A DNA stretch of 64,000 nucleotides from Candidatus Binatus sp. (GCF_036567905.1 NZ_DATCTO010000069.1:27899-91898); one strand, 5' to 3'; numbered from the stretch's first letter, positions 254 through 23,749 are shown. Notes: generated from the letters alone by a model not told the origin. Numbers and translations are program-made.

Positions 254-652
254 ATGATGCAGCTGGTCGAGGTCCGTATGACGCGAACAGTAGTCACCGT
301 AGGACCGGCCGATACGCTCGCTGCCGCAGCATCCAAAATGGAGGCGGGACCATTTCGCCGGCTCCCGGTCGTCGAGGCAGATCAGCTCGTCGGAATCGTG
401 AGCGAATTTGACTTGAGACGCTACGCGGACGCGCTCGACTCGACGCTGGTCAAAACCGCGATGACGCGCCATCCGATCACCGTGAGGCCCTCGGAATCGC
501 TGGCATATGCGGCCACCCTGATGCGCCAGCACAAAGTCGGCGCGCTCCCCGTTATGTACCTGGGCAAACTCGTCGGCATCGTCGCGGCAAAGGACCTCAT
601 GATGCCCGAGCCGCGGCCGCTGCCCGAATGGGATCCGCGCAACCGGGGGTAG
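254..652 (+). CDS. CBS-domain pair protein
   Basis: The 132-aa product has two tandem CBS-like segments (hydrophobic-G-I-V-S/A-x-D-L patterns: LVGIVSEFDL, LVGIVAAKDL). Confidence 0.6.
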   Translation: MMQLVEVRMTRTVVTVGPADTLAAAASKMEAGPFRRLPVVEADQLVGIVSEFDLRRYADALDSTLVKTAMTRHPITVRPSESLAYAATLMRQHKVGALPVMYLGKLVGIVAAKDLMMPEPRPLPEWDPRNRG

Positions 653-826
653 AGCCAGTCTCGATATCGAGCGTCCCGAGCGGCGTGTCATTTTTGTGCC
701 GCCGCTGACACCGAATTGCCGCCGCCCGCCCGCTTAGTTCGCTTGCAGCAAGCCCATTCATCCACACCGCGCGGCACAAATCTTGAAACTGCGCTGCCAG
801 GTCAGTGAAGTGAGGAGGGGCAATCT

Positions 827-2899: not shown

Positions 2900-2975
2900 A
2901 TCACCGGACCACGCCTGCGAGGTGCTCGAGAGGCGCGATGGACGGGGCGAGTGACGGCGGGTAGAAGTAGCCGTC

Positions 2976-3854: not shown

Positions 3855-3870
3855 CTCGCGACGAGTCCCG

Positions 3871-5112: not shown

Positions 5113-5414
5113 GTTGCAAGGCGCAGGTCTATAAGGCTCGCGCCGCCGAGGAAAGATAGCATAACGCGCTGTCCGCCGATTTGCTCGTTGTGGCATACTC
5201 GTGGCCTCTGCGCGCGTTTTGGAGGAGCAACTGTCCCCGGCCATTCGAAAGGAAAGCTTGATGCGCGTCGAAATCAGCGATGGCGTCGTATGGGGCGAGC
5301 TCGTGGATCAGCTGGTCGAAAAGAGACTCGTGCAACTGATCGCCAAGCCTAAAGGTGATTTGCGGTGAGGCCAAAGCTGGAGCCATCGGACCGTCACCGC
5401 GGCGCTTCGATTAG

Positions 5415-7364: not shown

Positions 7365-7388
7365 CGCATTAGTCACAATACCTGTTTC

Positions 7389-7418
7389 TTGACATACAAT
7401 TACGGGTCTTGCTATGTT
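7389..7418 (+). promoter_or_regulatory. candidate sigma70 promoter for the precursor peptide gene (TTGACA-N18-TATGTT)
   Basis: TTGACA lies at 7389-7394 and TATGTT at 7413-7418, about 27 nt upstream of the 7445 ATG. A GGGAGTGG RBS sits between them. The palindrome GTGAC-N6-GTCAC (7359-7374) overlaps the asnB-like stop just upstream. Confidence 0.4.
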
Positions 7419-7444
7419 GATTTCGCTGGATTCGGGAGTGGAAA

Positions 7445-7609
7445 ATGACCAAAAGTAGGGAACAACCGGCGAAAAAGAAAGAAGAGCGAGCAAAGCGACG
7501 CTATGCTCGTCCTCGTCTGATAAAATACGGCAGCGTTTCCAAGCTCACCGCCTCCGGCGGTTCCGCACTTCCGGTTGACGGCTCGAGCATCAGGAAGCCC
7601 GGGCCCTGA
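7445..7609 (+). CDS. lasso peptide precursor (A peptide), 54 aa: leader MTKSREQPAKKKEERAKRRYARPRLIKYGSVSKLTA, core SGGSALPVDGSSIRKPGP
   Basis: Hand-translated small ORF that is absent from the ORF track (<60 aa), with a GGGAGTGG RBS 5-6 nt upstream. The leader matches the YxxPxLxxxGxxxxxTx RRE-recognition motif exactly (Y-17, P-14, L-12, G-8, T-2). Core residue 1 is Ser and Asp is at core position 9, implying a 9-membered ring. It sits directly 3' of the AsnB-like gene. Confidence 0.65.
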   Translation: MTKSREQPAKKKEERAKRRYARPRLIKYGSVSKLTASGGSALPVDGSSIRKPGP

Positions 7610-7779
7610 CTCCCAGCTCCGTGGAAGTTCAGATCCGTAAAGAGCTTCCGGAGCCCCCGCATCATCAATGATGTGGTGATTCCGAAATGTAGTGAGTCCG
7701 ACAATTCCGGGAGTAGAGTAGGATTCGCCTTCAAGGGGTACCGCGCCGAGCGAGTCTCCACTGGGAACACGCTGAGCGG

Positions 7780-8784
7780 GTGCGCTGCGTAGCCGACTTG
7801 AGCAAACCGAGGATCCGAAACTTCCATAGCCAAGCCTACGGGCTGCAAATCGTTACCGACATCCCGCTTCCGGAGCTTCCGCCACTTCGGAGGTCGCCGA
7901 TCAGGTCGGCGGTTCGCGCGACTCTCGGCGGGCGCTTTCAGCGCATCGGGCTCAATCCCCAATGGTACCTGCGTTCGCGGCTTCCAGGCGGCCGGACTTG
8001 GCTGCGCTGCGGCAAGACCGCGGGCGGTTATGTACTTTCCTTTGCTGATATCGCCGACTTTGTCGTTGACGGCTCCGGAAGCCAGGTAGTCTGCTGCAAC
8101 GCCGGCAGCGACGTTAGTCTGGAGACCGTCCGTCATCTGCTGATCGACCAGGTGCTTGCGCTGATTGTAAACCTGCGCGGGCGCGACGCCCTGCACGCTA
8201 CCGCCGTCGCGACGCACAGGGGAGTTTGCGCATTCACGGGGCCTGCCGGGTCGGGCAAATCGACGCTCGCCGCGAGCTTTGTCCTGTCGGGCTATCCGCT
8301 GGTCTGCGATGATTGCCTGGCGGTTGCCGAGCGCAAGACAATTATGGCGCTCCCGGGGTATCCGGGCTTGCGGCTGTGGGACGATTCGATACGGGCGCTT
8401 GGCGCAAGTTCACGCAATCTGAAGCCGGTTGCGCACTATACGACGAAATCGCGCTGGCAAGACCATTCTCGACGCGCCGACTTCTGCTCGACGCCGCGCC
8501 GGCTCGCGCGCATCTATTTGCTCAAGCGCGCGCGCTCGAGCAAACACTCAGACCGCGTCCTCATCCAGGAACTCGCTCCCGCCGACGCGCTGATGGGCCT
8601 GGTCAAGGCGGCCTACCGGCTCGACATCACCGACCGCGCGATGCTGACGCGTCAGTTCCAGTTCCTCTCCCGCGTTGCCGAGCGCGTCGCGGTCAAACGC
8701 CTCATCGTGCCCAACGAATTTTCCGCACTCGCCGATGTAAGAGAAGCCGTCCTGCGCGACTTAAGCGAAGGACCGGCCGCTTGA
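7780..8784 (+). CDS. HPr kinase/phosphorylase-like (HprK-related) kinase
   Basis: Walker A GPAGSGKST followed about 12 aa later by LVCDDC, matching the HPrK/P G-x-S-G-x-GKS ... LVADD arrangement. Proteins of this type are known tailoring kinases in lasso clusters. The exact start is uncertain. Confidence 0.65.
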   Translation: MRCVADLSKPRIRNFHSQAYGLQIVTDIPLPELPPLRRSPIRSAVRATLGGRFQRIGLNPQWYLRSRLPGGRTWLRCGKTAGGYVLSFADIADFVVDGSGSQVVCCNAGSDVSLETVRHLLIDQVLALIVNLRGRDALHATAVATHRGVCAFTGPAGSGKSTLAASFVLSGYPLVCDDCLAVAERKTIMALPGYPGLRLWDDSIRALGASSRNLKPVAHYTTKSRWQDHSRRADFCSTPRRLARIYLLKRARSSKHSDRVLIQELAPADALMGLVKAAYRLDITDRAMLTRQFQFLSRVAERVAVKRLIVPNEFSALADVREAVLRDLSEGPAA

Positions 8785-8955
8785 CCACGACACCGCGCGG
8801 AGTGATTTGTGCGCGTTACCTTGCGCAAGACAGTGGCGCGGCGGACGACACATCCGCCTTAGAATTCACAGTGAACAGAGGATTGCCGCCTTCAATACGG
8901 TAATCGCTGGAGCCGAGGCGAGTCTTCGGTGGCGGCGATCAGAACCCTCGCCGGC

Positions 8956-8984
8956 CCTCCGCGGATTGCGTGAATCCGCGGAGG
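8956..8984. terminator. perfect 12-bp-stem hairpin between convergent genes (putative bidirectional terminator)
   Basis: CCTCCGCGGATT-gcgtg-AATCCGCGGAGG lies between the kinase gene stop (8784, + strand) and the beta-helix gene stop (9032, - strand). No clear U-tract. Confidence 0.4.
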
Positions 8985-9031
8985 TCACCGGCAAAACGAG
9001 GAAGAACCAAGCTTATACTTCACCGCACTTA

Positions 9032-10039
9032 TCAGGATCCCAGTCCTCCGATGCAGGCAGGACTTGACGCAGCGCCGGCGCTCGAAGTGCCAAAGCTATT
9101 GTTGTACCAGAGATTATTGCCGCAGGAAGCGGTCGCGTCGCGGAGATCGAAGGTGGTGGTGCCGTCGCCGTTGCCGGTGGCGTTAACGGTCGAGACCTGG
9201 TCCTGAGACGTCGATTCACTGGTATCCAGCAAAACCCCATTTCCGGTGTTGTCAGAGACTCCGTTTGGCGACGCGATAAACGCGTCAAGCACAGACGCAC
9301 TAGTATTTGCCTTGCCAAACGATGTACCGCCTAAGTGGACTGCGTTGCCCGCGTTATCTGCAGCGATGAATACGGTCGCACTAGGCTGGTCACCGTTTTG
9401 AATGAGCAATCCGTCACCGCCATTGTCAGTAGTTGAAAAGTCAAAAATCGTGCATTCATCGCTACATCCATTGAGGAAAATGCCGGTACCGGTGTTTCCC
9501 GATACAGAGAAATTACCCCATCTGTCTGTGCCCCCCATCATCAGCAGTCCGGTACCATTGGCCAAAGTAGTAGAAGGAGGAAAGGCTCCGATATTAACAT
9601 CGTCCCCTACGGTGTTGCCGCCGGAATCCGAGATCCCCGTCCGAAACCCTGTCACGAAGGCATTAAAGCCCTCCACCACGTTGTTGTCACCGGTGATCCT
9701 GATACCAGCCCCGGAAGTTACCGTGCTACCCGGACCGCTTATCGTGTAGCCATTGAGGAGCAAGGCGTCCCTGTCGCCCGTCAAATTAATACAGTTGGCG
9801 GTGGTGCTCGTCGTCGAGAGGTTACCCGTAAGATAGTAGATCGTGTTGGTCCCACCTAGATTCGACGTCGGGCAGTTGGGGCCGTTAACCGCCGTAGGAT
9901 CAGGTCCGGCTGCCCCCGCGATTGCACCGGTATGCTTGTGCTTGGCCCATGCAGTCCCCGGTGCCGCTAAGCCAACTCCGACCGCAAAAGCCAAAAGCGC
10001 TACGCTCAGGGTCTTGGTTATTCGATTCATCTCATCCAT
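9032..10039 (-). CDS. secreted parallel beta-helix repeat protein (Gly/Thr/Asn-rich)
   Basis: Signal peptide (TLSVALLAFAVGVGLAAPGTAWA) followed by repetitive G-x-N/G-T-G-I/L... turns typical of a right-handed beta-helix. A paralog lies at 50847..51728. Confidence 0.55.
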   Translation of the reverse strand: MDEMNRITKTLSVALLAFAVGVGLAAPGTAWAKHKHTGAIAGAAGPDPTAVNGPNCPTSNLGGTNTIYYLTGNLSTTSTTANCINLTGDRDALLLNGYTISGPGSTVTSGAGIRITGDNNVVEGFNAFVTGFRTGISDSGGNTVGDDVNIGAFPPSTTLANGTGLLMMGGTDRWGNFSVSGNTGTGIFLNGCSDECTIFDFSTTDNGGDGLLIQNGDQPSATVFIAADNAGNAVHLGGTSFGKANTSASVLDAFIASPNGVSDNTGNGVLLDTSESTSQDQVSTVNATGNGDGTTTFDLRDATASCGNNLWYNNSFGTSSAGAASSPACIGGLGS

Positions 10040-10287
10040 CCTTCTTTCGCTTTTGTTTCGTTGTCCTTACCGATACACAATTAACAGAACTGATTGCGCA
10101 ACACGTTCGTTTACGACGTGCTGTAGCAGAATTGACAACTTTACGAACGGCCGTGAATCATTCCATTTGGCCTTCTTTGTGTCAAGCGGTTTTATGACGC
10201 CCATTGACGGCTTTCTTATTCGATTTTAGCGGTTAGAAGTCGTACATTAGGCTGAGAGACGTATATCTCTACAATTTGTTATCCTAG

Positions 10288-11592
10288 TTGCCGGCAAGAC
10301 GGAAGCCGCTGTCGCCGTTTGATACACTTGTAATGCGCAGTTGGTCCACGCTTGCGCTTCGAGCTATTGTTCACAACTCAATGGCATCCGACGCTCTTCT
10401 CGACCTTGCCGATTTGTCGATCGAAGCGGCACTCGTGCTCTGCTGCGCGACAACTGCGGCTACGGCTGCGCGCACGGCGCTGGCGTCCGAGGTTGCGCCG
10501 CGCATACGCAGTTGGGACCGCGTCGTCGATATCGCCAAACGTCATGCGGTGCTCCCGCTGGTGCATCGCTATCTGAAACTCGAATGTCCGACCGCGGTTG
10601 CGCAAGAGGGGCTTGCGAAGCTGCGGACCCAGTGGCAGCTGATCATTCTCTACAACCGTCATCTGACCGCCGAACTTGTGCGCCTGATGGGCCTGCTGGA
10701 GGCGGCTGGAGTTGCGGCGGTCACCTTCAAGGGTCCGGTGCTTGCCGCGATGGCATACGGATCAATCGAACTTCGCCAGTTCAGCGATCTGGATATTCTG
10801 GTGCGCCAGACTGACCTGCCCCGGGTCGCCGAAATACTCACCGCCGAACGATATTTGTCGCCACATACCAGGCGCGAAGGCCTCGCGACCGGCTACTTTC
10901 AGGAGTACGAGGACGCCTTCATCGGACCCGACGGGCTGGGCGCGGTGGACGTTCATTGGAACATCACGCCGCGCTCGTTCCGTTTCGCCCCCGACGAGGA
11001 AGCCCTGTGGCGGCGCGCGCGCGGGGTCGATCTGGAGTTCGGCAAAGTGATGGCGATCGCGCCCGACGACCTGCTGCTATACATCTGCGTCCACGCCGCA
11101 AAGCATGGATGGATCACGCTCGGATCGATCTGCGACGTCGCCGAGACCATTCGGGCGCGTCCGGGAATCGATCTGATGGGGATGCTCGACGAGGCGACCG
11201 CGCTCGGGAGCCGGCGGATGTTCCTGACCGGCATCTGCCTGGCGCACGAGCTGGCCGGCGCGCCGGTCCCCGCCGAGCTTGTCACGATAGCTCGCGGCGA
11301 CCGCGCCGCCCGGGCGTTAGCGCGACGCGTCGCGGGGCGACTGTTCAAGGGAGCCACGCAGGGACGGGCAGACTTCGATCCGTGGGCGGTTCCGATCCGC
11401 TCGATCGAGGGCGCGCGCGCGCGAATGCGGTACATCGTCCGCCGAACGCTGGCGCCGACGATGGGCGACTATGAACTTATCGCGCTGCCGGCGGCGCTCT
11501 TTCCGCTCTACTGGGTGATTCGGCCGTTTCGGATGGCGGTGCAATACGGGCCGCGGCTGGTGCGCGGCTCTTCAAACAGTTCGAACGCGTGA
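10288..11592 (+). CDS. nucleotidyltransferase family protein (PF14907-like 'uncharacterised nucleotidyltransferase')
   Basis: The hG[GS]...D-h-D nucleotidyltransferase core is present: GPVLAAMAYGSIELRQFSDLDILV. Size of about 430 aa is consistent with the family, which recurs in kinase-containing lasso clusters. The start may be later, e.g. the MASDALL ATG. Confidence 0.55.
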   Translation: MPARRKPLSPFDTLVMRSWSTLALRAIVHNSMASDALLDLADLSIEAALVLCCATTAATAARTALASEVAPRIRSWDRVVDIAKRHAVLPLVHRYLKLECPTAVAQEGLAKLRTQWQLIILYNRHLTAELVRLMGLLEAAGVAAVTFKGPVLAAMAYGSIELRQFSDLDILVRQTDLPRVAEILTAERYLSPHTRREGLATGYFQEYEDAFIGPDGLGAVDVHWNITPRSFRFAPDEEALWRRARGVDLEFGKVMAIAPDDLLLYICVHAAKHGWITLGSICDVAETIRARPGIDLMGMLDEATALGSRRMFLTGICLAHELAGAPVPAELVTIARGDRAARALARRVAGRLFKGATQGRADFDPWAVPIRSIEGARARMRYIVRRTLAPTMGDYELIALPAALFPLYWVIRPFRMAVQYGPRLVRGSSNSSNA

Positions 11593-11626
11593 GCGTTCTC
11601 AATCTTTGATTTTTTAGCGGATTTGC

Positions 11627-11702
11627 TGGTGAGCCGGCCGGGACTTGAACCCGGGACCCTGTGATTAAAAGTCACATGCTCTACCGCCTGAGCTACCGGC
11701 TC
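11627..11702 (-). tRNA. tRNA-Lys (anticodon UUU), 76 nt with encoded CCA
   Basis: Reverse complement folds as a cloverleaf: acceptor GAGCCGG/CCGGCTC, D-arm TAGCTCAGGCGGTAGAGCA, anticodon stem TGTGA/TCACA with loop CTTTTAA, T-arm CCGGGTTCAAGTCCCGG, discriminator A, CCA. Confidence 0.85.
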
Positions 11703-12164
11703 ACCCGAGAGATTTCAATGCTTACAGGTAATTCGAAGCGTTGGAAACAGTCGCGACTTCACAACTCGGTTGCGCAACTCCGCCGCGCTTTGATTTCAAC
11801 TGCGCATGTTCTGCGAAAAACTCTATTTTTTCAGCTAGTTAAACCAGCTCGAAGCGTGGCGCGCCGTTGCCGGAAGAGCGACGGAAATGAGGCCGGTGAA
11901 GACGCGAGGCTATGTCATTTTCAATCAAATTTTCGATCCAACGCCATCGTGATTGCAGCGCGCTCATCACAGTGAAGGGCGCGATAGCAAAACACAAGGT
12001 GAGTGGCCGTTGCTCAAAATCGGCAAATTCCGCCCTGAACAGCTTGACATGCTACCCACTACTCGAATATATCCAAATCCTACAAATTAGTAGAGCGGGT
12101 TTAGTAAATTAGTGTGGGCAAATTAGTGTAGGTTGGAAGAATCAGCGCTCGAGAGGAACCAAGC

Positions 12165-13388
12165 ATGCGCCTACAAGAGTACTCGGCGAACGGATCGCCG
12201 GTCGCGGCTGCGAGGCATAAGCCTGGCGCCGAGCCGGCGGCCGCGACGTGCGAGTGGTTGAGCCTGGGGGAACTTGCGCATGGGTCGGAGCGGATTGGCG
12301 GGGCGGTGGTGCGGTCGGCGCACGCGCGCAAGATACTCAAAACCATTTCGCGCTTGAGTCCGTACAAGTCAACGGTCCTGATTCAGGGCGAATCGGGAAC
12401 CGGCAAGGAGTTGGTCGCGCGAGCGTTGCATACGCTGGGTGCGGTGCCAAGCGGCCCGTTCGTGACCTTCAACTGCTCCAACCTGGTCGAGTCGCTGGCA
12501 GAGTCGCAGCTTTTCGGTCATGTGCGCGGCGCTTTCACCGATGCGCGCGAGGATTCACTCGGCTATTTCCGCTCCGCCAACGGCGGAACTCTGTTTCTGG
12601 ACGAAGTCGGCGAGCTGCCGCTGCGCCTGCAGCCCAAGTTGCTGCGCGCGCTCGATACCCACGAGATTCAGCCGGTCGGTTCGTCACGCACCTACTCGGT
12701 TGATATTCGGCTGGTCGCGGCAAGCAATCGCGACCTGCACGCGATGGTGAAGGCAGGCCAATTCCGCGACGACCTCTACTACCGCCTTAACGCGGCGGCA
12801 ATCCTGGTTGCGCCGCTGCGCCAGCGGCGCGAGGCAATCCCGGCCTTCGTCGCCCATTTTATCGAGCACTTCAACCGCCTGTTCGGCAAGGACGTAAAGC
12901 TCGTTTCGCGGATCGCCGTGGACGCGCTGTGCGCAAATGACTGGCCCGGTAATGTCCGCGAGCTCGGCCATGCAATCGAGAGCGCGGTTCTGATGACCGA
13001 AAACGATCGTATCGATCTCGACGACCTGCCTTTGCGCCACGACGATTCGAATGGGGAAGCGCTGGACAAGCCGGTCGAGGCGGCGGTGCAAAACGGCGGG
13101 CTCAATCTCGAGGGCGGGCCCGATGGCGCCGGGATTGACTGCGCGAACGCGTCGAAGCGATGCTTCGAAATGGCGGGCTGGCCCTACTCGCTCGACGCGG
13201 TAATCCGCGAGGCCTCGAAGCTCGCGCTGATTCGCGCGCTGCAGGCGACCGAGGGCAATTGCCATCGCGCGGCCGAGATGCTGGGCGTATCGCGCTACAC
13301 GGTTTACCGGATGCTGAACCGGTTTGGCCTGGGCGAAGGACGCACCTACAGGACGCTGCGCAAGTCGATCGTCCGCCACGCGTCTTGA
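12165..13388 (+). CDS. sigma54-dependent Fis-family transcriptional activator (no receiver domain)
   Basis: AAA+ sigma54-interaction domain (LIQGESGTGKELVARALH, GAFTDA, ESQLFGH) and a C-terminal Fis-type HTH (AAEMLGVSRYTVYRMLNRFGL). The short N-terminus has no REC or GAF domain. Confidence 0.85.
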   Translation: MRLQEYSANGSPVAAARHKPGAEPAAATCEWLSLGELAHGSERIGGAVVRSAHARKILKTISRLSPYKSTVLIQGESGTGKELVARALHTLGAVPSGPFVTFNCSNLVESLAESQLFGHVRGAFTDAREDSLGYFRSANGGTLFLDEVGELPLRLQPKLLRALDTHEIQPVGSSRTYSVDIRLVAASNRDLHAMVKAGQFRDDLYYRLNAAAILVAPLRQRREAIPAFVAHFIEHFNRLFGKDVKLVSRIAVDALCANDWPGNVRELGHAIESAVLMTENDRIDLDDLPLRHDDSNGEALDKPVEAAVQNGGLNLEGGPDGAGIDCANASKRCFEMAGWPYSLDAVIREASKLALIRALQATEGNCHRAAEMLGVSRYTVYRMLNRFGLGEGRTYRTLRKSIVRHAS

Positions 13389-13521: not shown

Positions 13522-14451
13522 CTAGCGGGCGGCGCGCGAGCGGCCGCTGAGCGCCCGCGCCACGGCGTCCGGCAGCAAAGTCCTGGCGAACCGCAGGTAA
13601 TTCTTGATTCGTAATGGATCGAAGCGGATTGCGCGCGCGAATGCGCGGCGTGCCAGCGTCCGATCGCCATCGCGGAGCGCGTGAAGCCCGATATAGCCGA
13701 GGATGCTGCGCGGCGCGCGACGACGGGCGAGCACGTGGTGATGCGCCGACACGCCGTAGCGCTCGCGCACCATCCGCTCGAAGATTGCGCCCGCCTCCTC
13801 CTGCCCTCCGCCGGGCTTGAGCGGCTCCGGGAACAGCGCGAAGCGCCATACCGCGAGCGGCTCCGCCAGATGGTGAAAGTTTCCGTATTCGCGCGCGCGG
13901 AGCCAAAGGTAAACGTCCTCGAACGCGATCAGATCCTCCGGGAATCCGCCCGCAAGCTCGAACACGCTTCGGCGCATCACGACTCCACTGGGCAGGATGG
14001 GCCACAACCGCTCGAGCATCTCGCCTACGGTTGGCGCGTGACTCGCGCCGGCCAGCGCGGCCATCTGCTCCCGCCCGGTGCTGTCGGCCAGGGCAAGATC
14101 CGTGTAAACGAGGCCGCAATCGGGGTCGCAGTCAAGCGTCTGGACCGTGCGCTCGAGCATCGCGGGCAGCCACCAATCGTCGGCGTCGAGGAACGCCAGG
14201 TACTCGCCCGACGATGCGCGCACGCCGGTGTTGCGGGCCGCGGAGGGCCCGCGCTTTGGCTCCTCGAGAATCTTTACCCGCCCGGCGAATCGCGCGAGAA
14301 CCTCGCGGCTGGAATCGATCGACCCATTATCGATCGCGATGATCTCGAAATCGGTGAAGGTCTGCGCGAGCACGCTCTCGATCGCGCCCGCCACCGTAGA
14401 GGCGCCATTGTAAACCGGGATGATTACCGAAACCCGCGGCATCCGGCACAC
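13522..14451 (-). CDS. GT2 family glycosyltransferase
   Basis: VSVIIPVYNG...IIAIDNGSID...LDADDWW matches the GT-A DxD-type family 2 signature. Confidence 0.8.
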   Translation of the reverse strand: MCRMPRVSVIIPVYNGASTVAGAIESVLAQTFTDFEIIAIDNGSIDSSREVLARFAGRVKILEEPKRGPSAARNTGVRASSGEYLAFLDADDWWLPAMLERTVQTLDCDPDCGLVYTDLALADSTGREQMAALAGASHAPTVGEMLERLWPILPSGVVMRRSVFELAGGFPEDLIAFEDVYLWLRAREYGNFHHLAEPLAVWRFALFPEPLKPGGGQEEAGAIFERMVRERYGVSAHHHVLARRRAPRSILGYIGLHALRDGDRTLARRAFARAIRFDPLRIKNYLRFARTLLPDAVARALSGRSRAAR

Positions 14452-14463
14452 CCAATAGGCGGG

Positions 14464-15369
14464 CTACGCGACCGCCGAACGGCCGGCGCCGGCGCCGTGA
14501 CGGGTGGGGCCGATTGCGGCGCGCGGGTGCTTCCACGCCGAGAGATCGCGCCCGGTCATCCGCTCCAGCGCCTCGACCTCGGGCCGAAAATGCTCGCGCA
14601 TCCGCGCTTCGGTCTCAGGGTCGAGACTCGGGAAAGCCTGGCCGCCGCCGAAGCATAAGCGCCATACTCCGGCGCGCTCGAGCGCGCTTAACGCGCGATG
14701 CCATCGATGCGTCCGCATCCAGTCGCGGGCGTTGCGCGCACTCTGCGCGAGGCGCCGGCTTCTCGGCGCGTGCGTGACCGCATTGACGCGCTCGGAGGCT
14801 CCGACCGTCGCGGCAACCTTGAACGGCGCGATCCCGATGAAGCCGCAGATGCGATCGAGGTAGCCCTGCGGGTCGGCTTCGAGATCGTCGTAGATGCATA
14901 CCAGCACATGCTCGGCGCCGAACATGCGCTGCCACTGTGCCAGATGATGCGCATAGCGGCTCGACTCGCGGATGATGGGGTTGCGCGCGACGGTCTCCTC
15001 GAAGCCCACCCGCGTCCACGCATCGCGGCGCATCACCCGGTACGACGAGTACGCGCGCTCGGTTGGGTCGCGAAACGAACAGATGATCCGGCATTCCGGG
15101 ACGTGCTGCGCTATCCGCTCGCGCGCCTCGGCCGAGCCGAAATAGTTGGGATCGATCTCTCCAACCGGCAGGCCGCAGCGGCAGTTACGGAAGTAATCGA
15201 GGTACCAGTCGATCCCCCTGTCGTAATGGCGAACGAAGAAGTCGGTCTCCTTGGCGCCTTCGGGAAGGCCAACGTGGCCGCGCAGCGCTTGGTCGAGCCA
15301 GGTGGTGCCCGTGCGCTGCGGTCCGACCGCGATGAAGTCCGGAAGCCGCGCGGTGCGCGTGGCGCTCAT
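14464..15369 (-). CDS. sulfotransferase family protein
   Basis: 5'-PSB loop FIAVGPQRTGTTWL and a 3'-PB-like FRDPTERAYSSY motif. Paralogous to the three genes at 16.8-19.6 kb. Confidence 0.75.
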   Translation of the reverse strand: MSATRTARLPDFIAVGPQRTGTTWLDQALRGHVGLPEGAKETDFFVRHYDRGIDWYLDYFRNCRCGLPVGEIDPNYFGSAEARERIAQHVPECRIICSFRDPTERAYSSYRVMRRDAWTRVGFEETVARNPIIRESSRYAHHLAQWQRMFGAEHVLVCIYDDLEADPQGYLDRICGFIGIAPFKVAATVGASERVNAVTHAPRSRRLAQSARNARDWMRTHRWHRALSALERAGVWRLCFGGGQAFPSLDPETEARMREHFRPEVEALERMTGRDLSAWKHPRAAIGPTRHGAGAGRSAVA

Positions 15370-15598
15370 GACGGGTCTCGAAGCGCACGCCGCGCAGCGG
15401 GCTCGGCCACTACATCCGCTTTTCCTATTTGAATCTCCAATTGCAACTCCCGGATACGCCCGACGCGCTCGGCTGCGCCGCGCGCCCCCCGGGCGTCCCT
15501 TGGCGTCGCCGTGCGGCTCCCGGCGGAAATCGCGTCGGGATGGGACTGCCGTCCTGCGAGGCGGTGGGCCTGCAGCGGCCGATAGTTCGTCACACTAA

Positions 15599-16729
15599 TC
15601 ACGCGCGTTTCCGCGAACAAATCGCATTTTCGTAAACCGCAAGATAACGCCCGGCGACGCGGGGCCAATCGTACTCGGCGCGCACGGTGGCGAGTCCGCG
15701 TTGTCCCATCTGGTTGCACTCGTCGGGGTGCGTGACCATCCAGCGCATCGCGGCGGCGAACTCCGGAGCCTCATTACGCTCCACCAGAAGACCTTCTTCT
15801 CCATCATGCACGACTTCCGGCACGCCTCCGCTGCGAGTGGCGATTACCGGTCGCCCGCACGCCATCGATTCCAGGAACACCAGGCCGAGGCCCTCTGGCC
15901 GGCGGCTCGCCATGACGAAGAATTGCGCGCCCTTGTACAGCTCCCAGAGCGTGGCGCGCGGGACAGCTCCGGTTAGTTCCACCCGTTTGTCGATTCCCAG
16001 CTCGCTCGCCAGTGCTGTCAGGCGCGCGCGATCAGCCCCCTCCCCCGCGATAACCAGGTCAAGCTCCGGGTGCGACGAGCAAATCGCGGCGAAGGCCTCG
16101 ATCACCACATCCAGCGCCTTGGATGAAAGATCAAGCCGCGACGCCGTCAGTATGTATGGGCGCGCGCGGCGAAAGGGCACACTTTGCGCCGCTCGGGCGC
16201 AATCCACTCCGCCGCGGATGACTTGCGCGCTGGCGATCGGCGGGTAAAACCTCGCCAGGCCGTTGCGCACCGATTCGGTCAGCACGCACAGGACGGTCGC
16301 CCCCGTGAGCGCTTTGAGCGCAGCCGGATAGGACCAATCGCCGCCATAACAATCCTGAAGAGTCTGCACCAGCGGCACGCACGCGAGTCTGGCCCCATCG
16401 GCAATCGCGGCTAATTTGTTCCACTGATTCACGTGCGAATTCACTACGTCGGGCCGCACGCGCCGGAGCAGCTCGGCCAATTCATGCCCGCGCCGCAATC
16501 GCAAAAGCCGCTCTGGATGGCGCAATGACGGCCGCTTGGTTGCGGGTATCCGCAAGCTGTGAACCGGCAGCCGGCTCAACGGCTCGCGCTCCGCTCCGGC
16601 AACGCCATAGTGGGTGCAGGCCACCTCGACGTGATGCCCTGCCAGCAGCATCTCGCTCGCGAGGTTATCCACGAACTCGGCAATTCCGCCGATGAAACGA
16701 AACTGCGTGCACAGAAGGAGGATTCGCAT
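15599..16729 (-). CDS. GT4 (GT-B fold) glycosyltransferase
   Basis: N-terminus MRILLLCTQFRFIGGIAEFV and a C-terminal E-x7-E-like region (FVMASRRPEGLGLVFLESMACGRPVIATRSGG), as in glycosyltransferase family 1/4. Confidence 0.8.
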   Translation of the reverse strand: MRILLLCTQFRFIGGIAEFVDNLASEMLLAGHHVEVACTHYGVAGAEREPLSRLPVHSLRIPATKRPSLRHPERLLRLRRGHELAELLRRVRPDVVNSHVNQWNKLAAIADGARLACVPLVQTLQDCYGGDWSYPAALKALTGATVLCVLTESVRNGLARFYPPIASAQVIRGGVDCARAAQSVPFRRARPYILTASRLDLSSKALDVVIEAFAAICSSHPELDLVIAGEGADRARLTALASELGIDKRVELTGAVPRATLWELYKGAQFFVMASRRPEGLGLVFLESMACGRPVIATRSGGVPEVVHDGEEGLLVERNEAPEFAAAMRWMVTHPDECNQMGQRGLATVRAEYDWPRVAGRYLAVYENAICSRKRA

Positions 16730-16837
16730 GGCATCAGGCTGCGCGCCCCGACCTCGCTAATCCGTGGAATCGTATCAGAGCGTGGTGACGGCGCAACCTC
16801 ATGAGCGATGAAATCGGGCAGTCTCGGTTGACGGCCG

Positions 16838-17779
16838 CTATTTGAAGATTGGGTCGTGAAGATCGTCAAGGCTGGTCGCGCCCGCAACAGACCTCGCTGC
16901 CTTGCGCTCATCGCTGTGGCCGGCTGGTGGCGCGCACGGTTTCTTCCATGCGGAAAGATCGATCATAAGCAATTCCTCGAGCGCCTCGACTTCGGGGAGG
17001 TAAAGCTCGCGCAGGCGCTCCTCCTGCTTGGGCGTCAGCCGGCCGAACGGCTCGCCGCGGCCGTGGCAGAAATCCCATACGCCGCAGCGGTCCAGAAAAT
17101 TTATCGCGCCGTATGCCTGGCGGAGCTTGAACCAGTACATCAAGCGCGTCGCGCGGCGCGCGAGTCTGCGATTTTTTGGCGCGCGCTCGAACGAATGCAC
17201 GTCGTCACCGATTTCGGGCCGCTCGGAAAGTACAATCCGCCCGATGCCCATGAAATCGGTCACCCGATCAAGATACGACTGCGGCTGCGCGCGCAAGTCA
17301 TCATACATCGTGATAAGTACGTTCTCGCGGCCGAAGGTCTCGAACCATTTGCTCAGGTAGAACGCGTAGCGGTTGCCGCCGCCCAGACTGGGCCGGGCTT
17401 TGAGCGCCTCTTCGAACGATCCGCGCGCCCACGCAAAGTGAATCAGCATCTTGTAAACCGAAAACGAGTGCTCGACCGGATCGCGCAGCGTGGTGATTAC
17501 GCGACAGTTCGGAATGTACGTCTTGATGCGATCGGACGCGAGCGGATGGAACAGGTAGGGACAGACCTCGACGATCGGCCGCTCGCCGGTTGCGTAGCGA
17601 AAATGGCGCGCGTACCAGTCGATGCCCTTGTCGTAGTAATGGCTGAAAAACTGGGTCTCCTTGACCCCGTAGGGCAGATCGACGTGGCCTTCGAGGACGC
17701 GATGCAACCATGTAGTGCCGGTGCGACCGGGACCGGCGCCGATGATCGAAGGGAGCCGGCGTTTGATGCTTGCGCTCAT
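16838..17779 (-). CDS. sulfotransferase family protein (paralog 2)
   Basis: Start reassigned to the internal ATG (MSASIKRRLPSIIGAGPGRTGTTWL). The LRDPVEHSFSVY motif is present. The start overlaps the upstream gene's stop as ATGA. Confidence 0.75.
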   Translation of the reverse strand: MSASIKRRLPSIIGAGPGRTGTTWLHRVLEGHVDLPYGVKETQFFSHYYDKGIDWYARHFRYATGERPIVEVCPYLFHPLASDRIKTYIPNCRVITTLRDPVEHSFSVYKMLIHFAWARGSFEEALKARPSLGGGNRYAFYLSKWFETFGRENVLITMYDDLRAQPQSYLDRVTDFMGIGRIVLSERPEIGDDVHSFERAPKNRRLARRATRLMYWFKLRQAYGAINFLDRCGVWDFCHGRGEPFGRLTPKQEERLRELYLPEVEALEELLMIDLSAWKKPCAPPAGHSDERKAARSVAGATSLDDLHDPIFK

Positions 17780-18777
17780 CCGTTGGCTAATCGCTGCGGC
17801 CGGCGCGCCGGGGGAGTTTCGATGGTGCGCGCAGAGCGCGGTTTCTTCCACGCGGAGAGATCGACCATCAGCAATTCCTCGAGCGCTTCCACCTCGGGCA
17901 TGAAGCGCGCGCGCAGGCGCTCGTCCTGCTCGGGGGTAAGGCCCGGAAATAGCTCGCCGCGTCCGTGGCAGAAATCCCATACGCCCGCGCGTTCGAGCAG
18001 GTTGACGAGGCGATATGCCTGATGGCCCTTGAGCCAGAACATGAACTTGGTCGCTTTGCGCGCGAGTTTGCGGTTCTTGGGCGCACGAGCAAAAGAATTC
18101 ACCTCGCCACTGAGAGCGGGGCGCGGCGAGAGCACCACTCGCTCGGCACTCATAAAGTCGCAAACCCGATTCACATAGGTCTGCGGATCCGCGCGCAATC
18201 CATCGTATATCGTGACCAGGACGTTCTCACGGCCGAAACTCTCGAACCATGTCTTGAGATGCGCGGCGTAGCGGTTTGCGCCGCCCAGATCCGGCACCGC
18301 TTTGAGGACCTCGTCGAAGGTTCCGCGAGCCGTCCGTCGTCCGTTATGACTCCGGAGCTTGTACGTAGAATAGATTCGATCGACCGGATCGCGCAGCGTC
18401 ACGACGATCCTGCAGTTGGGGATGTGGGTCTTGATGCGTTCGCACGCCAGCGGATGGAAAAAGTACGGGCTGATTTCGGCAACTGTGCGATCGCCGGTCG
18501 CGTAGCGAAAATGACGCGCGTACCAGTCGATACCCTTGTCGTAGAACGTGTTGAAGAACTGGGTCTCCTTGACCCCAAAGGGCATGTCCACCGCGTCGCG
18601 CAGCGCATTGTAAAGCCAGGTCGAACCGGTGCGCGTCGGCCCGATTGCGATAACCTCGGGCAGAATCAGTTTCCTCGCTCCGCTCAAGTGAGTTGGCCTG
18701 GTAATTGAATCTTGTTGATGGCCTGGATCTGCTTGCCCGGGCGCTCTGATGCGACTGGACCCTTGCCATATTTCCAC
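17776..18777 (-). CDS. sulfotransferase family protein (paralog 3)
   Basis: Carries VIAIGPTRTGSTWL and LRDPVDRIYSTY. The 5' 90 nt overlap the upstream paralog, so the true start is probably a TTG at about 18687 with TTGA-type coupling. Confidence 0.7.
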   Translation of the reverse strand: MEIWQGSSRIRAPGQADPGHQQDSITRPTHLSGARKLILPEVIAIGPTRTGSTWLYNALRDAVDMPFGVKETQFFNTFYDKGIDWYARHFRYATGDRTVAEISPYFFHPLACERIKTHIPNCRIVVTLRDPVDRIYSTYKLRSHNGRRTARGTFDEVLKAVPDLGGANRYAAHLKTWFESFGRENVLVTIYDGLRADPQTYVNRVCDFMSAERVVLSPRPALSGEVNSFARAPKNRKLARKATKFMFWLKGHQAYRLVNLLERAGVWDFCHGRGELFPGLTPEQDERLRARFMPEVEALEELLMVDLSAWKKPRSARTIETPPARRPQRLANG

Positions 18778-19628
18778 GCGGACAGATCGCGGCCGATGAG
18801 TGCCTCGAACTCCTCGACCTCGGGCCGGTACAGTTCGCGGATGCGCGCTTCGACCTCGGGTGCCAGCGGTTCATACGGCCGGCCGCCTTCGTACACGAAA
18901 CGGCCCAGCGCACTTTTACGCAGCCACCTGGCCGTCCGATGCATCCGGCGCGAATTCATCCAGGTAGTGATGTTGCGCGCGGTACGCACCAGCCGGCGGC
19001 TCGGCGGCGCGGTCTCGACCGTATGCACGCGCTCGAAAGCGCGCGCCGGCGGAATCACGATTTGATCGATCCCGACAAAGGCGGTTACCCGGTCGACGAA
19101 CGCTTGCGCGTCGGCCTCGAGGTCATCAAGCAGACCGACCAGCACGTGGTCAGCGCTAAATTGGCGCTGCCATCTGGCGAGATGAAACCCGTAGCGGTTC
19201 TGTTCGCGGGTTTCGCGATGCTTCGCCGCCGCTTCTTCGAATGAAAGCTTGGTCCACGCGTTGCGGCGCAGCAGCCGGTAGAACGAGTAGGCGCGACTTA
19301 CCGGATCGCGGAACGTGCAGATGATGCGGCATTCGGGGAGGTGGCGCGCGATTCGCTCGGGAGCCTGGGGCGACGCGAAATAGGTCGCGCACACCTCGGC
19401 GATTTTCATCGCGGGCGGACAATGGCGAAAGTAGTCGGCGTACCAGTCGATTCCCTTGTCGTAGTGCTTGGAAAAAAAGTCGGTCTCCTTTTTCTCCAGC
19501 GGCAATCCCACGTGGCCCTTCAAGACCTCGTACAGCCAGGTGGTGGCGGTTCGCGGCGGTCCGACCGCGATGAAGTCGGGGAGCCTTGAGGGGCGTGCTC
19601 TTTGTATTGCGGGCGATATACGGTTCAA
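18684..19628 (-). CDS. sulfotransferase family protein (paralog 4)
   Basis: Carries FIAVGPPRTATTWL and FRDPVSRAYSFY. It is the first gene of the minus-strand sulfotransferase/GT operon. Confidence 0.75.
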   Translation of the reverse strand: MNRISPAIQRARPSRLPDFIAVGPPRTATTWLYEVLKGHVGLPLEKKETDFFSKHYDKGIDWYADYFRHCPPAMKIAEVCATYFASPQAPERIARHLPECRIICTFRDPVSRAYSFYRLLRRNAWTKLSFEEAAAKHRETREQNRYGFHLARWQRQFSADHVLVGLLDDLEADAQAFVDRVTAFVGIDQIVIPPARAFERVHTVETAPPSRRLVRTARNITTWMNSRRMHRTARWLRKSALGRFVYEGGRPYEPLAPEVEARIRELYRPEVEEFEALIGRDLSAWKYGKGPVASERPGKQIQAINKIQLPGQLT

Positions 19629-19979
19629 GGATTGTGGCCTGACGATGGTATTTCCGGACGTGCCCCGGCACCGGCATCGCGGCGATCCCGGTCAAGATAA
19701 CATCGCCAATATTTCATATCAATGAGGGCGTCGGCGCCAGCGCACGCCGGCGAGCGGGAATCGCCGCGCAGGATGCGCTCGGACAGCGGTGTTGCGATGC
19801 TCACAGTTGACTGAGTGACAGTTTCTAACCCGCCAGCAAATCGGTAATAATTGACCTCGACGATCCAGACTGATACTTCGAAGGGATCTGGAAAATGCAT
19901 GGAGATGCGCCGGCGGCGGCCCTGATCCGAACCTGCCGGACTACCGGCGCGACGGTTTCGAATGGATGAAGAAATATAG

Positions 19980-20864
19980 ATGCGTACGCAGGCCGAAAGT
20001 TCAAAGTTTTACGAACCGATCGTACCGTCGGACCAGATTCAGTATCGCGAATACAAACTGCTGCTGAAGCCGGAGCGGTTTCCCGACGAGAAGGCATTTC
20101 ACAAGTTCTGGAAGTTAGCGCATCACGCGGCCAAATCACTCGGTATCAAGCTGGGCAAGATCGACGAATCGGTCAAGCCGCATCAGCGCGAAGTGGTGTT
20201 CTACGACACGCCGCACTTCAAGCTCTACAATCACGGCTTCATCCTGAGAAAACGCACCTTCTATCATCATGGTCTGCCCGATGCGAAGCACGAGCTGGTG
20301 ATCAAATTTCGGCATCCGGAAAAGAAAACGGCGCTGGCGGTGGATCCGCGTCCACTGCTGCCATGCGCGTACACGCTGAAGTTCAAGGAGGAAATCCTCC
20401 TGCCCAAGGATGGCGCGCTGGGGATGCGGCTGGTGTATTCGCACAACTGCGAGCTCGACACACCCAACATCATATTGACGCAACGATTCGAAACGACCGC
20501 GGAAGCATTTCCGGCGCTCAAGAAGATCGACGCCAATCCGAAGGCGGCGCTGAGCGTAGTCAACGGCGTATCGATCCAGGAATACCAGGTCGATCTCGGG
20601 ATGCTGGACTTCGGGCACAAGCTCGAGGCGAAGGCGACGCTGGCGGTATGGCGGGTGCGCACGACCAACACGCCAATCGTGGCCGAGTTCGGCTACCAGT
20701 TGAAGTTCGATAGTCCCGAAGCGGTGCGGCGCAAGCAGCGCGAGCTTTCCGAATTCTTCTACACGGCCCTGCAGTCGCGGGCCTCAGACTGGGTGCAGCG
20801 TGGAACAACCAAAACCGCCCTCATCTACGGATACGGAAACACCAGCCTCAAGCACGACGAATGA
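19980..20864 (+). CDS. hypothetical protein (Lys-rich, lower GC than surroundings)
   Basis: Long ORF in an AT-richer segment with no motif I can assign confidently. A CYTH-like ExK segment was considered but not supported. Confidence 0.4.
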   Translation: MRTQAESSKFYEPIVPSDQIQYREYKLLLKPERFPDEKAFHKFWKLAHHAAKSLGIKLGKIDESVKPHQREVVFYDTPHFKLYNHGFILRKRTFYHHGLPDAKHELVIKFRHPEKKTALAVDPRPLLPCAYTLKFKEEILLPKDGALGMRLVYSHNCELDTPNIILTQRFETTAEAFPALKKIDANPKAALSVVNGVSIQEYQVDLGMLDFGHKLEAKATLAVWRVRTTNTPIVAEFGYQLKFDSPEAVRRKQRELSEFFYTALQSRASDWVQRGTTKTALIYGYGNTSLKHDE

Positions 20865-22123: not shown

Positions 22124-23434
22124 CTACATGTGTCCGGTTTCCGCCATCTTCACCAACGCCTCGGTGGTGAAGAACGCTTTATCCACCGCACCCATGTTGA
22201 TGTACCAGCATTCACGCTCTTGCGTCTCGTGGCCGGGCAGGTAGCACATCGTTGCCTGGCCGGTCTGCACATCGGTGGAGCAGGAGCCGACGACGAATTC
22301 GCGCTTGAAAGGATAGATGGCGATTTTCGCGTCGGGCACCGGACGATCGCGATACGCGAGCCAGAAGGTGTTGTTGCGGAACAGCTGGCCGCTGCGATCG
22401 TAGGTATCGACGTACGGCTCGAACCACATTTCGGAATCCATGTAGATGACCGTCTTGGAATCGAGCGCCGAAGCGTTAACGCTGTTGCGCGGCTCGGCGC
22501 TCACAATGTACATGTGGCGCATCTGCCAACGCTCGGGGCATGCGCTGCCGCCGCCGTCGGTCTCGCATCGCCTTTCCGGTGAATACTCGGCGTCAACCGT
22601 CGCCAGCATTTGCTTCTCGCCGAGGAACTTATAGTTGTACTCTTCGATCTTGGCATTGAAACCCGAATAGCGATCGGGGTCAAAGGTCTGCGCGTCGGTC
22701 GCGGTCGAATTCATCGCCTCGTTGAGACGGCGCAGGCGCCGCGTGCCGGGCTCCCAGGTCCAGGTGTCGTCGCCATGAGCCGGTTCGCCGTACCGATAAC
22801 GCAGCAGGCTGCTGCCACGCTGGTTCTCGGGCGCGAGTTCGGGACCGAGCAGGAACAACCACAGGCGGTTGGTAAGCTTGAAGTCGGGATCGACCGGCAT
22901 CGGCTCGACCTCGGTTCGGCCGACGAGGTCATAACCGGCATAGTGCCCGGTCTGGTAGTACCAGATTGCAAAGTAAGGCTTGTTGCGGCCGGAGTAAACC
23001 GTGTCGCAATCGTAATATCGCAGGTCGTAGTCGTCATTGCTGATCGGACGCCACATGGCGTTCCAGACGACCTTGCTTGCGACGTAGGGATCGTTGGCGT
23101 CGATCATCGGGAAGGGCTGTCCGGCGACATAGCCAATGACGGTGCGATGATCCTTCGACAGCTGTACCTGCGACGAATATTTTTCGGTCGCGTCCGTGTA
23201 CGGAGGCGGCCAATCGATGCGCTCGGTGGGGACGATTTTCATCGTCATCCCGCGCTGCACTTTGTAAAACACGCCTGGCGAAACAAGATCCTTCACCTTC
23301 GACGCGTTGTCCGGAGTGATGAAGTCGCCTGGCTTCACCTGCGCGGACGCGGGCGATACGCCGACAATAAGGGCGAGCGCAAACGCGCTGACGATCGTGG
23401 CGAAGTGCGTCGCTCTGTGGGTAATTTCGATCAT
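22124..23434 (-). CDS. secreted protein, possibly DUF1329 (LolA-like) family
   Basis: Signal peptide (FATIVSAFALALIVGVSPASA) followed by about 420 aa rich in W/Y/D. Family assignment is from memory of DUF1329-like composition only. Start moved to the MIEITHR ATG. Confidence 0.4.
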   Translation of the reverse strand: MIEITHRATHFATIVSAFALALIVGVSPASAQVKPGDFITPDNASKVKDLVSPGVFYKVQRGMTMKIVPTERIDWPPPYTDATEKYSSQVQLSKDHRTVIGYVAGQPFPMIDANDPYVASKVVWNAMWRPISNDDYDLRYYDCDTVYSGRNKPYFAIWYYQTGHYAGYDLVGRTEVEPMPVDPDFKLTNRLWLFLLGPELAPENQRGSSLLRYRYGEPAHGDDTWTWEPGTRRLRRLNEAMNSTATDAQTFDPDRYSGFNAKIEEYNYKFLGEKQMLATVDAEYSPERRCETDGGGSACPERWQMRHMYIVSAEPRNSVNASALDSKTVIYMDSEMWFEPYVDTYDRSGQLFRNNTFWLAYRDRPVPDAKIAIYPFKREFVVGSCSTDVQTGQATMCYLPGHETQERECWYINMGAVDKAFFTTEALVKMAETGHM

Positions 23435-23749
23435 GGCCGTTCCTCCGATTTGGTCTCTGCGCCAGGGAGCGCTATAAGCCAAGCTCATATTGGAGACGCA
23501 CAGACCGTGCCAGAGCTAATCGCTCGAAATTTCCAATAGACATCATTAAAGCCCATTACGTCTCTGGCGCACTCTGACACATAGTGCTTCCGTTTGCGTC
23601 ATCGCCGTTGTGGCGATGCGTCTAGCGGAGACCTAAATCAGAAGGCTGACGCCGGCGATTTGGGGGCCGCAGGCAGCGCAGGCATCTACCCACCGTCCAC
23701 AGGCTTATGCACCGGGCTTGCATTTCCTGCGTATCAGGCTAGACTGCGG

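Follow-up and report, generated by a model that had tools for sequence, protein, structure and literature searches.

Known systems and the Binatus island

To our knowledge, few bacterial sulfated glycans are known outside cyanobacteria, rhizobia, mycobacteria and some marine strains. The sulfotransferases (STs) NodH and LpsS of rhizobia and Stf0 of mycobacteria carry out cytoplasmic sulfation of Nod factor, lipopolysaccharide and a trehalose glycolipid, with 3'-phosphoadenosine 5'-phosphosulfate (PAPS) as the donor. In the cyanobacterium Synechocystis 6803, the xss cluster for synechan places PF00685/PF13469 STs among glycosyltransferases (GTs) of families 2 and 4 (GT2 and GT4), with a dedicated transcriptional activator nearby (PMC8205485). 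Here, we describe an island of six genes, encoding four STs, one GT2 and one GT4, that lies beside a sigma54 enhancer-binding protein (EBP) gene in a 64,000-nucleotide stretch of Candidatus Binatus sp. (GCF_036567905.1, NZ_DATCTO010000069.1:27899-91898), the whole of which is referred to as the window. Cassettes of ST and GT genes for sulfated glycans are already known; distinctive in this case is an ST-dominated, export-less and variable island in an uncultured phylum, and our literature search returned no paper combining Binatota with a sulfotransferase.

NodH, LpsS and Stf0 resemble the island in being stand-alone STs without an adjoining exporter, but they are single enzymes with defined acceptors, unlike the four STs of the island. 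In fold, in the order of the 5'-phosphosulfate-binding (PSB) and 3'-phosphate-binding (3'-PB) motifs, in the catalytic Glu and in a YDKG..WY block, the window STs are like the heparan-sulfate 3-O-sulfotransferases (3-OSTs) and the ST domain of NDST (PDB 1T8T, 6XKG, 1VKJ, 1NST). They differ from these enzymes in being only ~20-25% identical to them, in having Arg in place of the PSB Lys, and in being soluble bacterial proteins with an added conserved C-terminal helix region that ends in DLSAWK; moreover, unlike heparan-sulfate systems, the locus is without a heparosan-like polymerase.

The best full-length match, and the top match in fold, is PDB entry 3RNL, an ST of Alicyclobacillus acidocaldarius, which likewise belongs to a small GT and ST cassette without export genes. 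Cassettes of the 3RNL type contain one ST, whereas the window has four; they have their own adenosine 5'-phosphosulfate (APS) kinase, whereas the window has none, and they are without a sigma54 EBP. Orthologs of 3RNL in Alicyclobacillaceae (L116, 2525-5317; L117, Ferroacidibacillus, 8292-12137; L numbers denote our sampled loci) sit beside genes for a GT4-like protein and an APS kinase, hinting at a sulfated glycoside or glycolipid in that family. The L117 cassette also encodes a DHH/DHHA1-domain protein, judged by its domains possibly a 3'-phosphoadenosine 5'-phosphate (PAP) phosphatase, which has no counterpart in the Binatus island.

Like the xss cluster, the Binatus island has its STs interleaved with GT2 and GT4 genes and an activator gene nearby, although the activator is of the STAND type in xss and a sigma54 EBP here. 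Clusters of the xss type also encode Wzx/Wzy or ABC export and a polysaccharide co-polymerase, none of which is present in the Binatus island, and the balance of enzymes is reversed, with eight GTs to two STs in xss and two GTs to four STs in Binatus (PMC8205485).

Sulfotransferase sequence, fold and age

All four STs (ST-a to ST-d) match Pfam Sulfotransfer_1/_3 with E values of 1e-10 to 1e-19, and the PAPS motifs that the original prediction had noticed are present in each of them with small deviations only. The PSB loop follows the pattern GPxRT[GA][TS]TW throughout, reading RTGSTWL in ST-c and RTATTWL in ST-d, and ST-b has His for the second Arg of the 3'-PB motif RDPxxRxxSxY; the RTATTW of ST-d and the His of ST-b both recur among the respective orthologs. 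Residue conservation was computed over 182 ST family members from related loci (ST-a numbering). The PSB Arg, R19, is Arg in 178 of the 182 proteins and Lys in 4, and the equivalent of the catalytic Glu, E41, is Glu in 166 and Asp in 15. R100 and S108 of the 3'-PB motif, which align with VRDPVTRAISDY of 3-OST-3, are invariant (182/182). Because the PAPS-binding and catalytic residues are kept and the deviations recur in orthologs, all four STs look functional, and they are predicted to add sulfate as PAPS-dependent enzymes. A loss of PAPS-binding residues, which would have spoken against the original prediction, was seen in none of them.

A profile built from the four paralogs matched 3RNL best among PDB sequences, over the full length (4e-28), the C-terminal DLSAW(K/R)(K/R)P motif included. 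Heparan-sulfate 3-OST-3 (3A1), -1 and -5 and the ST domain of NDST1 followed (1e-25 to 1e-17). In these alignments, GPxRTGTTW corresponds to the PSB loop and RDPxxRxxSxY to the 3'-PB motif, the YDKG..WY block is shared, and the Glu of KET[DQ]FF aligns with the catalytic Glu of EPHFF in 3-OST-3. ST-a was chosen for modeling, and its AlphaFold2 model (mean predicted local distance difference test score, pLDDT, 87; predicted template-modeling score, pTM, 0.85) was compared by Foldseek, which placed 3RNL, 3-OST-3/-1/-5 and NDST1 on top (E 1e-12 to 1e-9, target-normalized TM-score 0.7-0.8); the CurM ST, tyrosylprotein STs and cytosolic SULTs reached E values of ~1e-6 to 1e-4 and a TM-score of ~0.4. 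No NCBIfam model reached its curated cut-off for the STs, GT2, GT4 or EBP. Both sequence profile and predicted fold thus mark the STs as carbohydrate-type enzymes and support a sugar acceptor. We know of no bacterial relative of these heparan-sulfate-type STs with a known substrate, 3RNL itself being uncharacterized.

Pairwise identity among the four STs is 39-64%, the highest value (64%) belonging to the adjacent pair ST-b and ST-c, and the presence of four such paralogs inside 6 kb is far beyond chance. Average-linkage clustering of the 182 STs at 65% identity gave 36 clusters and assigned the four window STs to four separate ones, each with orthologs in 9-33 other species-level genomes. The orthogroups of ST-b and ST-c comprise 33 and 23 loci, respectively, and orthologs of ST-d are found at 78-94% identity in 9-14 genomes. 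Ortholog identity is 89-95% in the closest genome (L004) and up to 83-88% elsewhere. The tandem arrangement had originally been taken as a sign of recent duplication, a reading that the 39-64% identities and the separate orthogroups do not support. Since each ST has its own cluster and its own orthologs across species, the duplications are, on this sequence evidence, older than the diversification of the genus.

A variable island in a fixed slot

Homologs of the window STs were found at 76 loci in a species-representative genome collection, the nearest being L004 with 95% identity. Almost all of these loci come from metagenome-assembled genomes (MAGs) labeled Candidatus Binatus, Binataceae or 'uncultured delta proteobacterium'. 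Their conserved frame consists of one or more DUF1329 genes, two half-size chromate-transporter genes, U294 (a gene for a triphosphate tunnel metalloenzyme (TTM)-like protein), the variable ST/GT array and the convergent sigma54 EBP gene. In 25 genomes, both flanks of the island, the TTM-like gene and the EBP gene, are on the locus. These bounded islands span 6.1-12.4 kb and contain 2-5 STs and 1-4 GT2s, tightly interleaved and co-varying over the 25 genomes, with an ST:GT ratio that is 4:2 in the window and rises to 5:1. Other versions of the island add an NAD-dependent sugar epimerase/dehydratase and a class-III aminotransferase, and GT4 is found in one of the 25 bounded islands, being confined among these to the lineage of the window.

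The EBP gene adjoins ST/GT arrays in more than 40 loci, some of them without lasso peptide genes, and each of the 13 island loci checked has a tRNA-Lys gene next to the EBP gene, among them the lasso-less L080, L013, L005 and L028. The island is a fixed chromosomal slot, bounded by the TTM-like gene on one side and by the sigma54 EBP and tRNA-Lys genes on the other, whose gene set turns over between species. By analogy, such turnover at a single slot is reminiscent of surface-glycan loci. Distant relatives (L036, L054) have small ST-GT2-GT4-ST islands amid housekeeping genes and without an EBP gene. A 30%-identical ST homolog of the cyanobacterium Symploca is part of a complete cluster of the sulfated-polysaccharide type, together with Wzy_C, an ABC exporter, WecG, additional STs and a sulfate symporter. 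Furthermore, L005 and L024 lie on one contig of a Binataceae MAG (CAWBLQ010000003.1), where the U294-ST-d and ST-a-GT2-EBP parts are ~80 kb apart, a split that indicates rearrangement at the island.

The GT2 of the window is a soluble enzyme of the GT-A type and carries a DADD motif. Among solved structures, the E. coli K4 chondroitin synthase comes closest, through its second GT2 domain (chain residues 374-563; 7e-25). We took the likeness to chondroitin and heparosan synthases as generic to GT-A enzymes and did not count it as evidence for a glycosaminoglycan. For GT4, a 'conflict system' Pfam match (6e-11) was likewise set aside, being much weaker than the matches to generic GT1/GT4 models.

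Gene organization

The six genes of the island lie in the same direction on the minus strand (13522-19628), in the 5'-to-3' order ST-d, ST-c, ST-b, GT4, ST-a and GT2 (Table 1). An independent gene caller returned the same six genes, with the lengths given in Table 1, from identical metagenome contigs; together with the Pfam matches, this bears out the enzyme assignments made from the sequence at the outset. Most of the initial coordinates also stand, apart from the starts placed at 18777 for ST-c and 14451 for GT2, both of which are upstream GTG codons. The GTG at 18777 opens the longest reading frame and is ~30 codons too long for ST-c by the measure of the paralog alignment and of the gene call (303 aa), and GT2 starts at 14442.

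Both start/stop overlaps reported initially are visible in the sequence: a TTGA at the ST-d/ST-c junction (4 nt, 18687-18684) and an ATGA at the ST-c/ST-b junction (4 nt, 17779-17776), where translation of neighboring genes would be coupled. The remaining gaps are 108 nt (ST-b/GT4), 229 nt (GT4/ST-a) and 21 nt (ST-a/GT2). A consensus scan found no convincing terminators or promoters within the array, and a single transcript across all six genes is plausible.

Table 1. Features of the island and its surroundings (window coordinates).
Feature	Position	Strand	Remarks
ST-d sulfotransferase	18684-19628	-	314 aa, TTG start; first gene of the array; Pfam Sulfotransfer_1/_3
ST-c sulfotransferase	17776-18687	-	303 aa, TTG start; Pfam Sulfotransfer_1/_3
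ST-b sulfotransferase	16838-17779	-	313 aa, ATG start; Pfam Sulfotransfer_1/_3
GT4-family glycosyltransferase	15599-16729	-	376 aa; Pfam Glycos_transf_1 (2e-40) and Glyco_transf_4
ST-a sulfotransferase	14464-15369	-	301 aa; Pfam Sulfotransfer_1/_3; paralog chosen for modeling
GT2-family glycosyltransferase	13522-14442	-	306 aa; Pfam Glycos_transf_2 (7e-33); last gene of the array
Divergent intergenic region, ST-d/TTM-like gene	19629-19979		351 nt; presumed site of the island promoter
U294, TTM-like gene	19980-20864	+	294 aa, divergent from ST-d; conserved island flank
Sigma54 EBP	12165-13388	+	Pfam Sigma54_activat, AAA_lid_14, HTH_8; convergent with GT2
tRNA-Lys(UUU)	11627-11702	-	ARAGORN and Rfam; between EBP and lasso cluster
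Lasso cyclase	5415-7364		NF033535, 437 bits
Lasso precursor	7445-7609		lasso_leader_L3 match; leader YxxPxLxxxGxxxxxT; predicted core SGGSALPVDGSSIRKPGP
HprK-related kinase	7780-8784		weak HprK-related matches, below cut-off
Secreted 335-aa protein	9032-10039	-	no family match
PF14907 nucleotidyltransferase	10288-11592		NTP_transf_5, 2e-54

Proposed function and its alternatives

We put at about 0.55 the probability that the island serves the cytoplasmic glycosylation and multi-site O-sulfation of an envelope glycolipid or oligosaccharide that is assembled elsewhere. The GT2 and GT4 would add sugars from nucleotide-sugar donors to an acceptor, and the four long-diverged STs of the 3-OST/NST type would add sulfate esters from PAPS, probably with a separate position or sugar for each ST. 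This would yield a glycoconjugate sulfated at several sites, most likely a glycolipid or oligosaccharide of the envelope, with core assembly, export and PAPS supply encoded elsewhere in the genome. The six proteins, read by eye, have no signal peptide or long hydrophobic segment; because they look soluble and PAPS is cytoplasmic, both glycosylation and sulfation would take place in the cytoplasm. Because the paralogs are old and divergent, we infer one position for each of them. Multi-site sulfation of a glycoconjugate is favored by the carbohydrate-ST fold, the interleaving of ST genes with those for GTs and sugar modification, and the turnover of the island from species to species. The general idea of a multiply sulfated glycoconjugate, already part of the original prediction, thus holds, given carbohydrate-type STs, GT2s, epimerase/dehydratase and aminotransferase genes in related islands.

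Several observations weigh against this reading. The Pfam-scanned genes of the window include no priming glycosyltransferase, flippase, polymerase, or ABC or outer-membrane exporter, and the ~50 called genes scanned there include none for PAPS synthesis; what remains of the window is taken up by housekeeping genes (GroEL, DAHP synthase, QueA/Tgt, SecDF, a P-type ATPase, cytochromes and COX1). The island would therefore be a tailoring set and not a complete pathway, and the envelope as its destination is a guess, because assembly and export genes are missing from the window. Furthermore, the PSB Lys of characterized carbohydrate STs is Arg in nearly all members of the family, albeit a conservative change, and the gaps of 108 and 229 nt could contain internal promoters. 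Finally, within the genus Binatus, the island and a lasso peptide cluster are consistently adjacent. The original prediction had regarded it as damaging if orthologous loci always sat in classical exopolysaccharide clusters without a link to peptides that are ribosomally made and modified after translation (RiPPs); half of this was observed, in that the RiPP link is weak, but the loci are without flippase, polymerase and exporter.

The related Binataceae islands examined are equally without a flippase, polymerase, exporter or priming transferase, and neither in nor near them are there lipid-carrier genes. The gene content is in this respect what would be expected if the island made a soluble multiply sulfated glycoside, that is, a di- or oligosaccharide acting as osmolyte, metal chelator or signal, instead of an envelope polymer or lipid. 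The soluble, cytoplasmic appearance of all six proteins, the high ST:GT ratio and the equally minimal cassettes of Alicyclobacillaceae would fit such a product as well. We nevertheless regard a soluble glycoside, although the leading alternative outside the lasso reading, as unlikely, since a fixed locus whose gene content varies between species would more typically encode a surface antigen than a conserved metabolite, and the island has no dedicated small-molecule exporter. The acceptor of the STs might also be something other than a carbohydrate, for instance a lipid, a hopanoid or carotenoid hydroxyl, or Ser, Thr or Tyr of a protein, with the GTs working on another substrate. Fold alone does not give acceptor specificity, the Arg in the PSB loop is as in tyrosylprotein STs, and the L080 island lies near a squalene-hopene cyclase gene. 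However, the best relatives in sequence and fold are glucosamine-sulfating enzymes, far ahead of tyrosylprotein STs, CurM and cytosolic SULTs, the STs and GT2s are interleaved and co-vary, and the hopene cyclase is a neighbor in one lineage only, so that we consider a non-carbohydrate acceptor very unlikely.

Sulfation of the nearby RiPP had been raised at the outset as an alternative to a glycoconjugate. In its fullest form, the kinase of the lasso cluster would phosphorylate a Ser or Thr of the peptide, the nucleotidyltransferase would add a hexose to the phosphate as in pseudomycoidin, GT2 and GT4 would extend the glycan, and the four STs would sulfate it. A real lasso cluster, with a cyclase, a precursor, an HprK-related kinase and an NTP_transf_5 protein, does lie ~2 kb from the island; this adjacency is kept over Binatus genomes with kinases 78-98% identical, and Ser or Thr occupies position 4 of all precursor cores. 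In pseudomycoidin, moreover, a homologous kinase phosphorylates Ser and the nucleotidyltransferase then glycosylates the phospho-Ser, and kinase-type lasso clusters of Firmicutes carry putative ST genes as well as nucleotidyltransferase genes (PMC8498205, PMC4289311).

Against tailoring of the lasso peptide stands the independence of the two modules. The island is neither in the lasso transcription unit nor contiguous with the core genes, being on the opposite strand with the EBP and tRNA-Lys genes in between, and the tRNA gene ends the island unit even where lasso genes are absent. Co-conservation of the island with the lasso core across lineages was not found, as the association is broken in both directions. 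On one side, L080 has ST-GT2-ST-EBP-tRNA-Lys without lasso genes, its flanks being hopene cyclase, aminotransferase, DUF899 and acyl-CoA carboxylase genes; L005, L013-L015, L019 and L044 have no lasso genes in the 5-9 kb available past the EBP gene; L028 keeps the island and retains only remnants of the nucleotidyltransferase gene; and L035 keeps the island with the EBP, the nucleotidyltransferase, a 95-aa kinase fragment and a major facilitator superfamily (MFS) transporter gene, the same gene that flanks the cyclase in the window, having lost the cyclase, precursor and secreted-protein genes. On the other side, no ST or GT gene lies within 9-10 kb of the lasso cores of L093/L094, L096, L105 and L113. 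In addition, STs of the 3RNL type in Alicyclobacillaceae belong to GT/APS-kinase cassettes and not to lasso clusters, some precursor tails (L004, L092) have no Ser or Thr at all, and the ST fold is far from that of tyrosylprotein STs, the predicted core of the window precursor having no Tyr. Our literature search found no report of a sulfated lasso peptide. Taken together, these points weaken the RiPP alternative and make tailoring of the lasso peptide by the island quite improbable. The adjacency in Binatus is best read as that of two modules flanking a tRNA gene, and even within this genus a functional link between them has a low probability. There is only a slim chance that in Binatus the island decorates a lasso product to which the kinase has already added a phosphate and the PF14907 nucleotidyltransferase a sugar. 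If true, this would be the first sulfated glyco-lasso peptide, and the turnover of the island would diversify its glycan in step with the hypervariable core tails.

The neighboring lasso cluster

In its cyclase, precursor, HprK-like kinase and PF14907 nucleotidyltransferase, the cluster next to the island is like the kinase/nucleotidyltransferase lasso clusters for paeninodin and pseudomycoidin (PMC8498205); however, it has no detected B1 or B2, and its precursors do not end in Ser. Whereas such lasso clusters of Firmicutes are reported to include a putative ST, the Binatus STs belong to a separable island beyond the tRNA gene (PMC8498205). Neither a B1 (PqqD) nor a B2 (transglutaminase-like peptidase) gene was found among the ~50 Pfam-scanned genes of the window or, in the related loci examined, in the stretches between mapped genes. 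Known kinase-type lasso systems phosphorylate a C-terminal Ser, whereas the precursor of the window ends in Pro. The precursor family (more than 25 members) has the conserved leader YxxPxLxxxGxxxxxT and a core that mostly starts S-G-G-[ST] with Asp at position 8 or 9, followed by hypervariable tails, several of which end in ...SxVCL.

Sampling by the kinase gave 33 metagenome loci, and in the sampled loci the cyclase, precursor, kinase and secreted protein always occur together. The 335-aa secreted protein, with a signal peptide and a high content of Gly, Thr, Asn and Ser, matches nothing in Pfam, NCBIfam or the PDB sequences; its gene adjoins the kinase gene on the opposite strand in every locus long enough to show it. 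The protein diverges fast (37-47% identity where the kinase has 62-85%), and its gene failed the GC3-minus-GC2 coding filter. A metagenome gene caller also predicted a 35-aa open reading frame (ORF), MRVEISDGVVWGELVDQLVEKRLVQLIAKPKGDLR, just upstream of the cyclase (5261-5368, plus strand). Related lasso clusters (L092, L085, L094, L113) have one or two added genes between cyclase and precursor, and the cluster of the window has none. For example, L092 (6976-9536) has an ORF that resembles a FAD/DAO-type oxidoreductase, as read from its N-terminal motif, and then a second ORF, and the corresponding gene of L113 matches PRMT-type methyltransferase models.

The lasso cluster comes right up to the 3' end of the tRNA-Lys gene, which suggests that it was inserted there. 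A recent integration there was tested and rejected: no att-like repeat of the tRNA 3' end was found in 1-12200, and no integrase is among the annotated genes of that region.

The sigma54 activator and the flanking genes

The EBP beside the island has no receiver domain, as originally noticed and as its Pfam domain layout confirms, with Sigma54_activat beginning at residue 50 and thus leaving ~49 residues before the AAA+ domain. A search for sigma54 -24/-12 promoters (TGGCAC-N5-TTGC, at most 3 mismatches) found none in 19629-19979 or in the internal gaps of the array, and when GG and GC were kept invariant in a stricter scan of the 76 related loci, covering their ST strand, no site recurred at a consistent place. 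A bare GG-N10-GC search gave 1088 matches, which is the chance level. Within 19629-19979 there is a sigma70-like TTGATA-17-TATCTT at 19722-19694 (minus strand), no better than chance expectation. Control of the island by the EBP may be envisaged, but the pairing of the two may be just inherited synteny, because other Binatia islands (L036, L054) are without an EBP gene.

The best sigma54-type -24/-12 match in the window is TGGCACGGTCTGTGCG at 23497-23512 (minus strand), with 2 mismatches. It lies just upstream of a gene for a DUF1329/LolA-like protein (22124-23488), part of the conserved flank, and is a candidate target of the orphan EBP.

On the other side of the island, U294 has no Pfam match. 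Its family comprises 474 proteins, and all named matches are from Binataceae or 'Deltaproteobacteria', so that it seems confined to Binataceae-type MAGs. The AlphaFold2 model of U294 (pLDDT 80) resembles TTMs of the CYTH type, namely YgiF, AtTTM3 and class IV adenylate cyclase (Foldseek 3e-7 to 1e-4). A homolog with 45% identity lies ~8 kb from the distant lasso cluster in L113.

Implications

The at least 36 clusters (65% identity) of soluble bacterial carbohydrate-type STs offer a panel for regiospecific sulfation and for the enzymatic synthesis of sulfated glycans. For the mining of lasso peptide clusters, the locus is a caution that the adjacency of 'tailoring-like' genes alone is no proof of cluster membership. 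For the organisms themselves, the uncultured soil and peat family Binataceae (phylum Binatota) keeps a dedicated chromosomal slot for 2-5 such STs and a few GTs in a set that differs between species, and the turnover at this slot points to a sulfated surface molecule or metabolite that diversifies within an abundant uncultured soil lineage.

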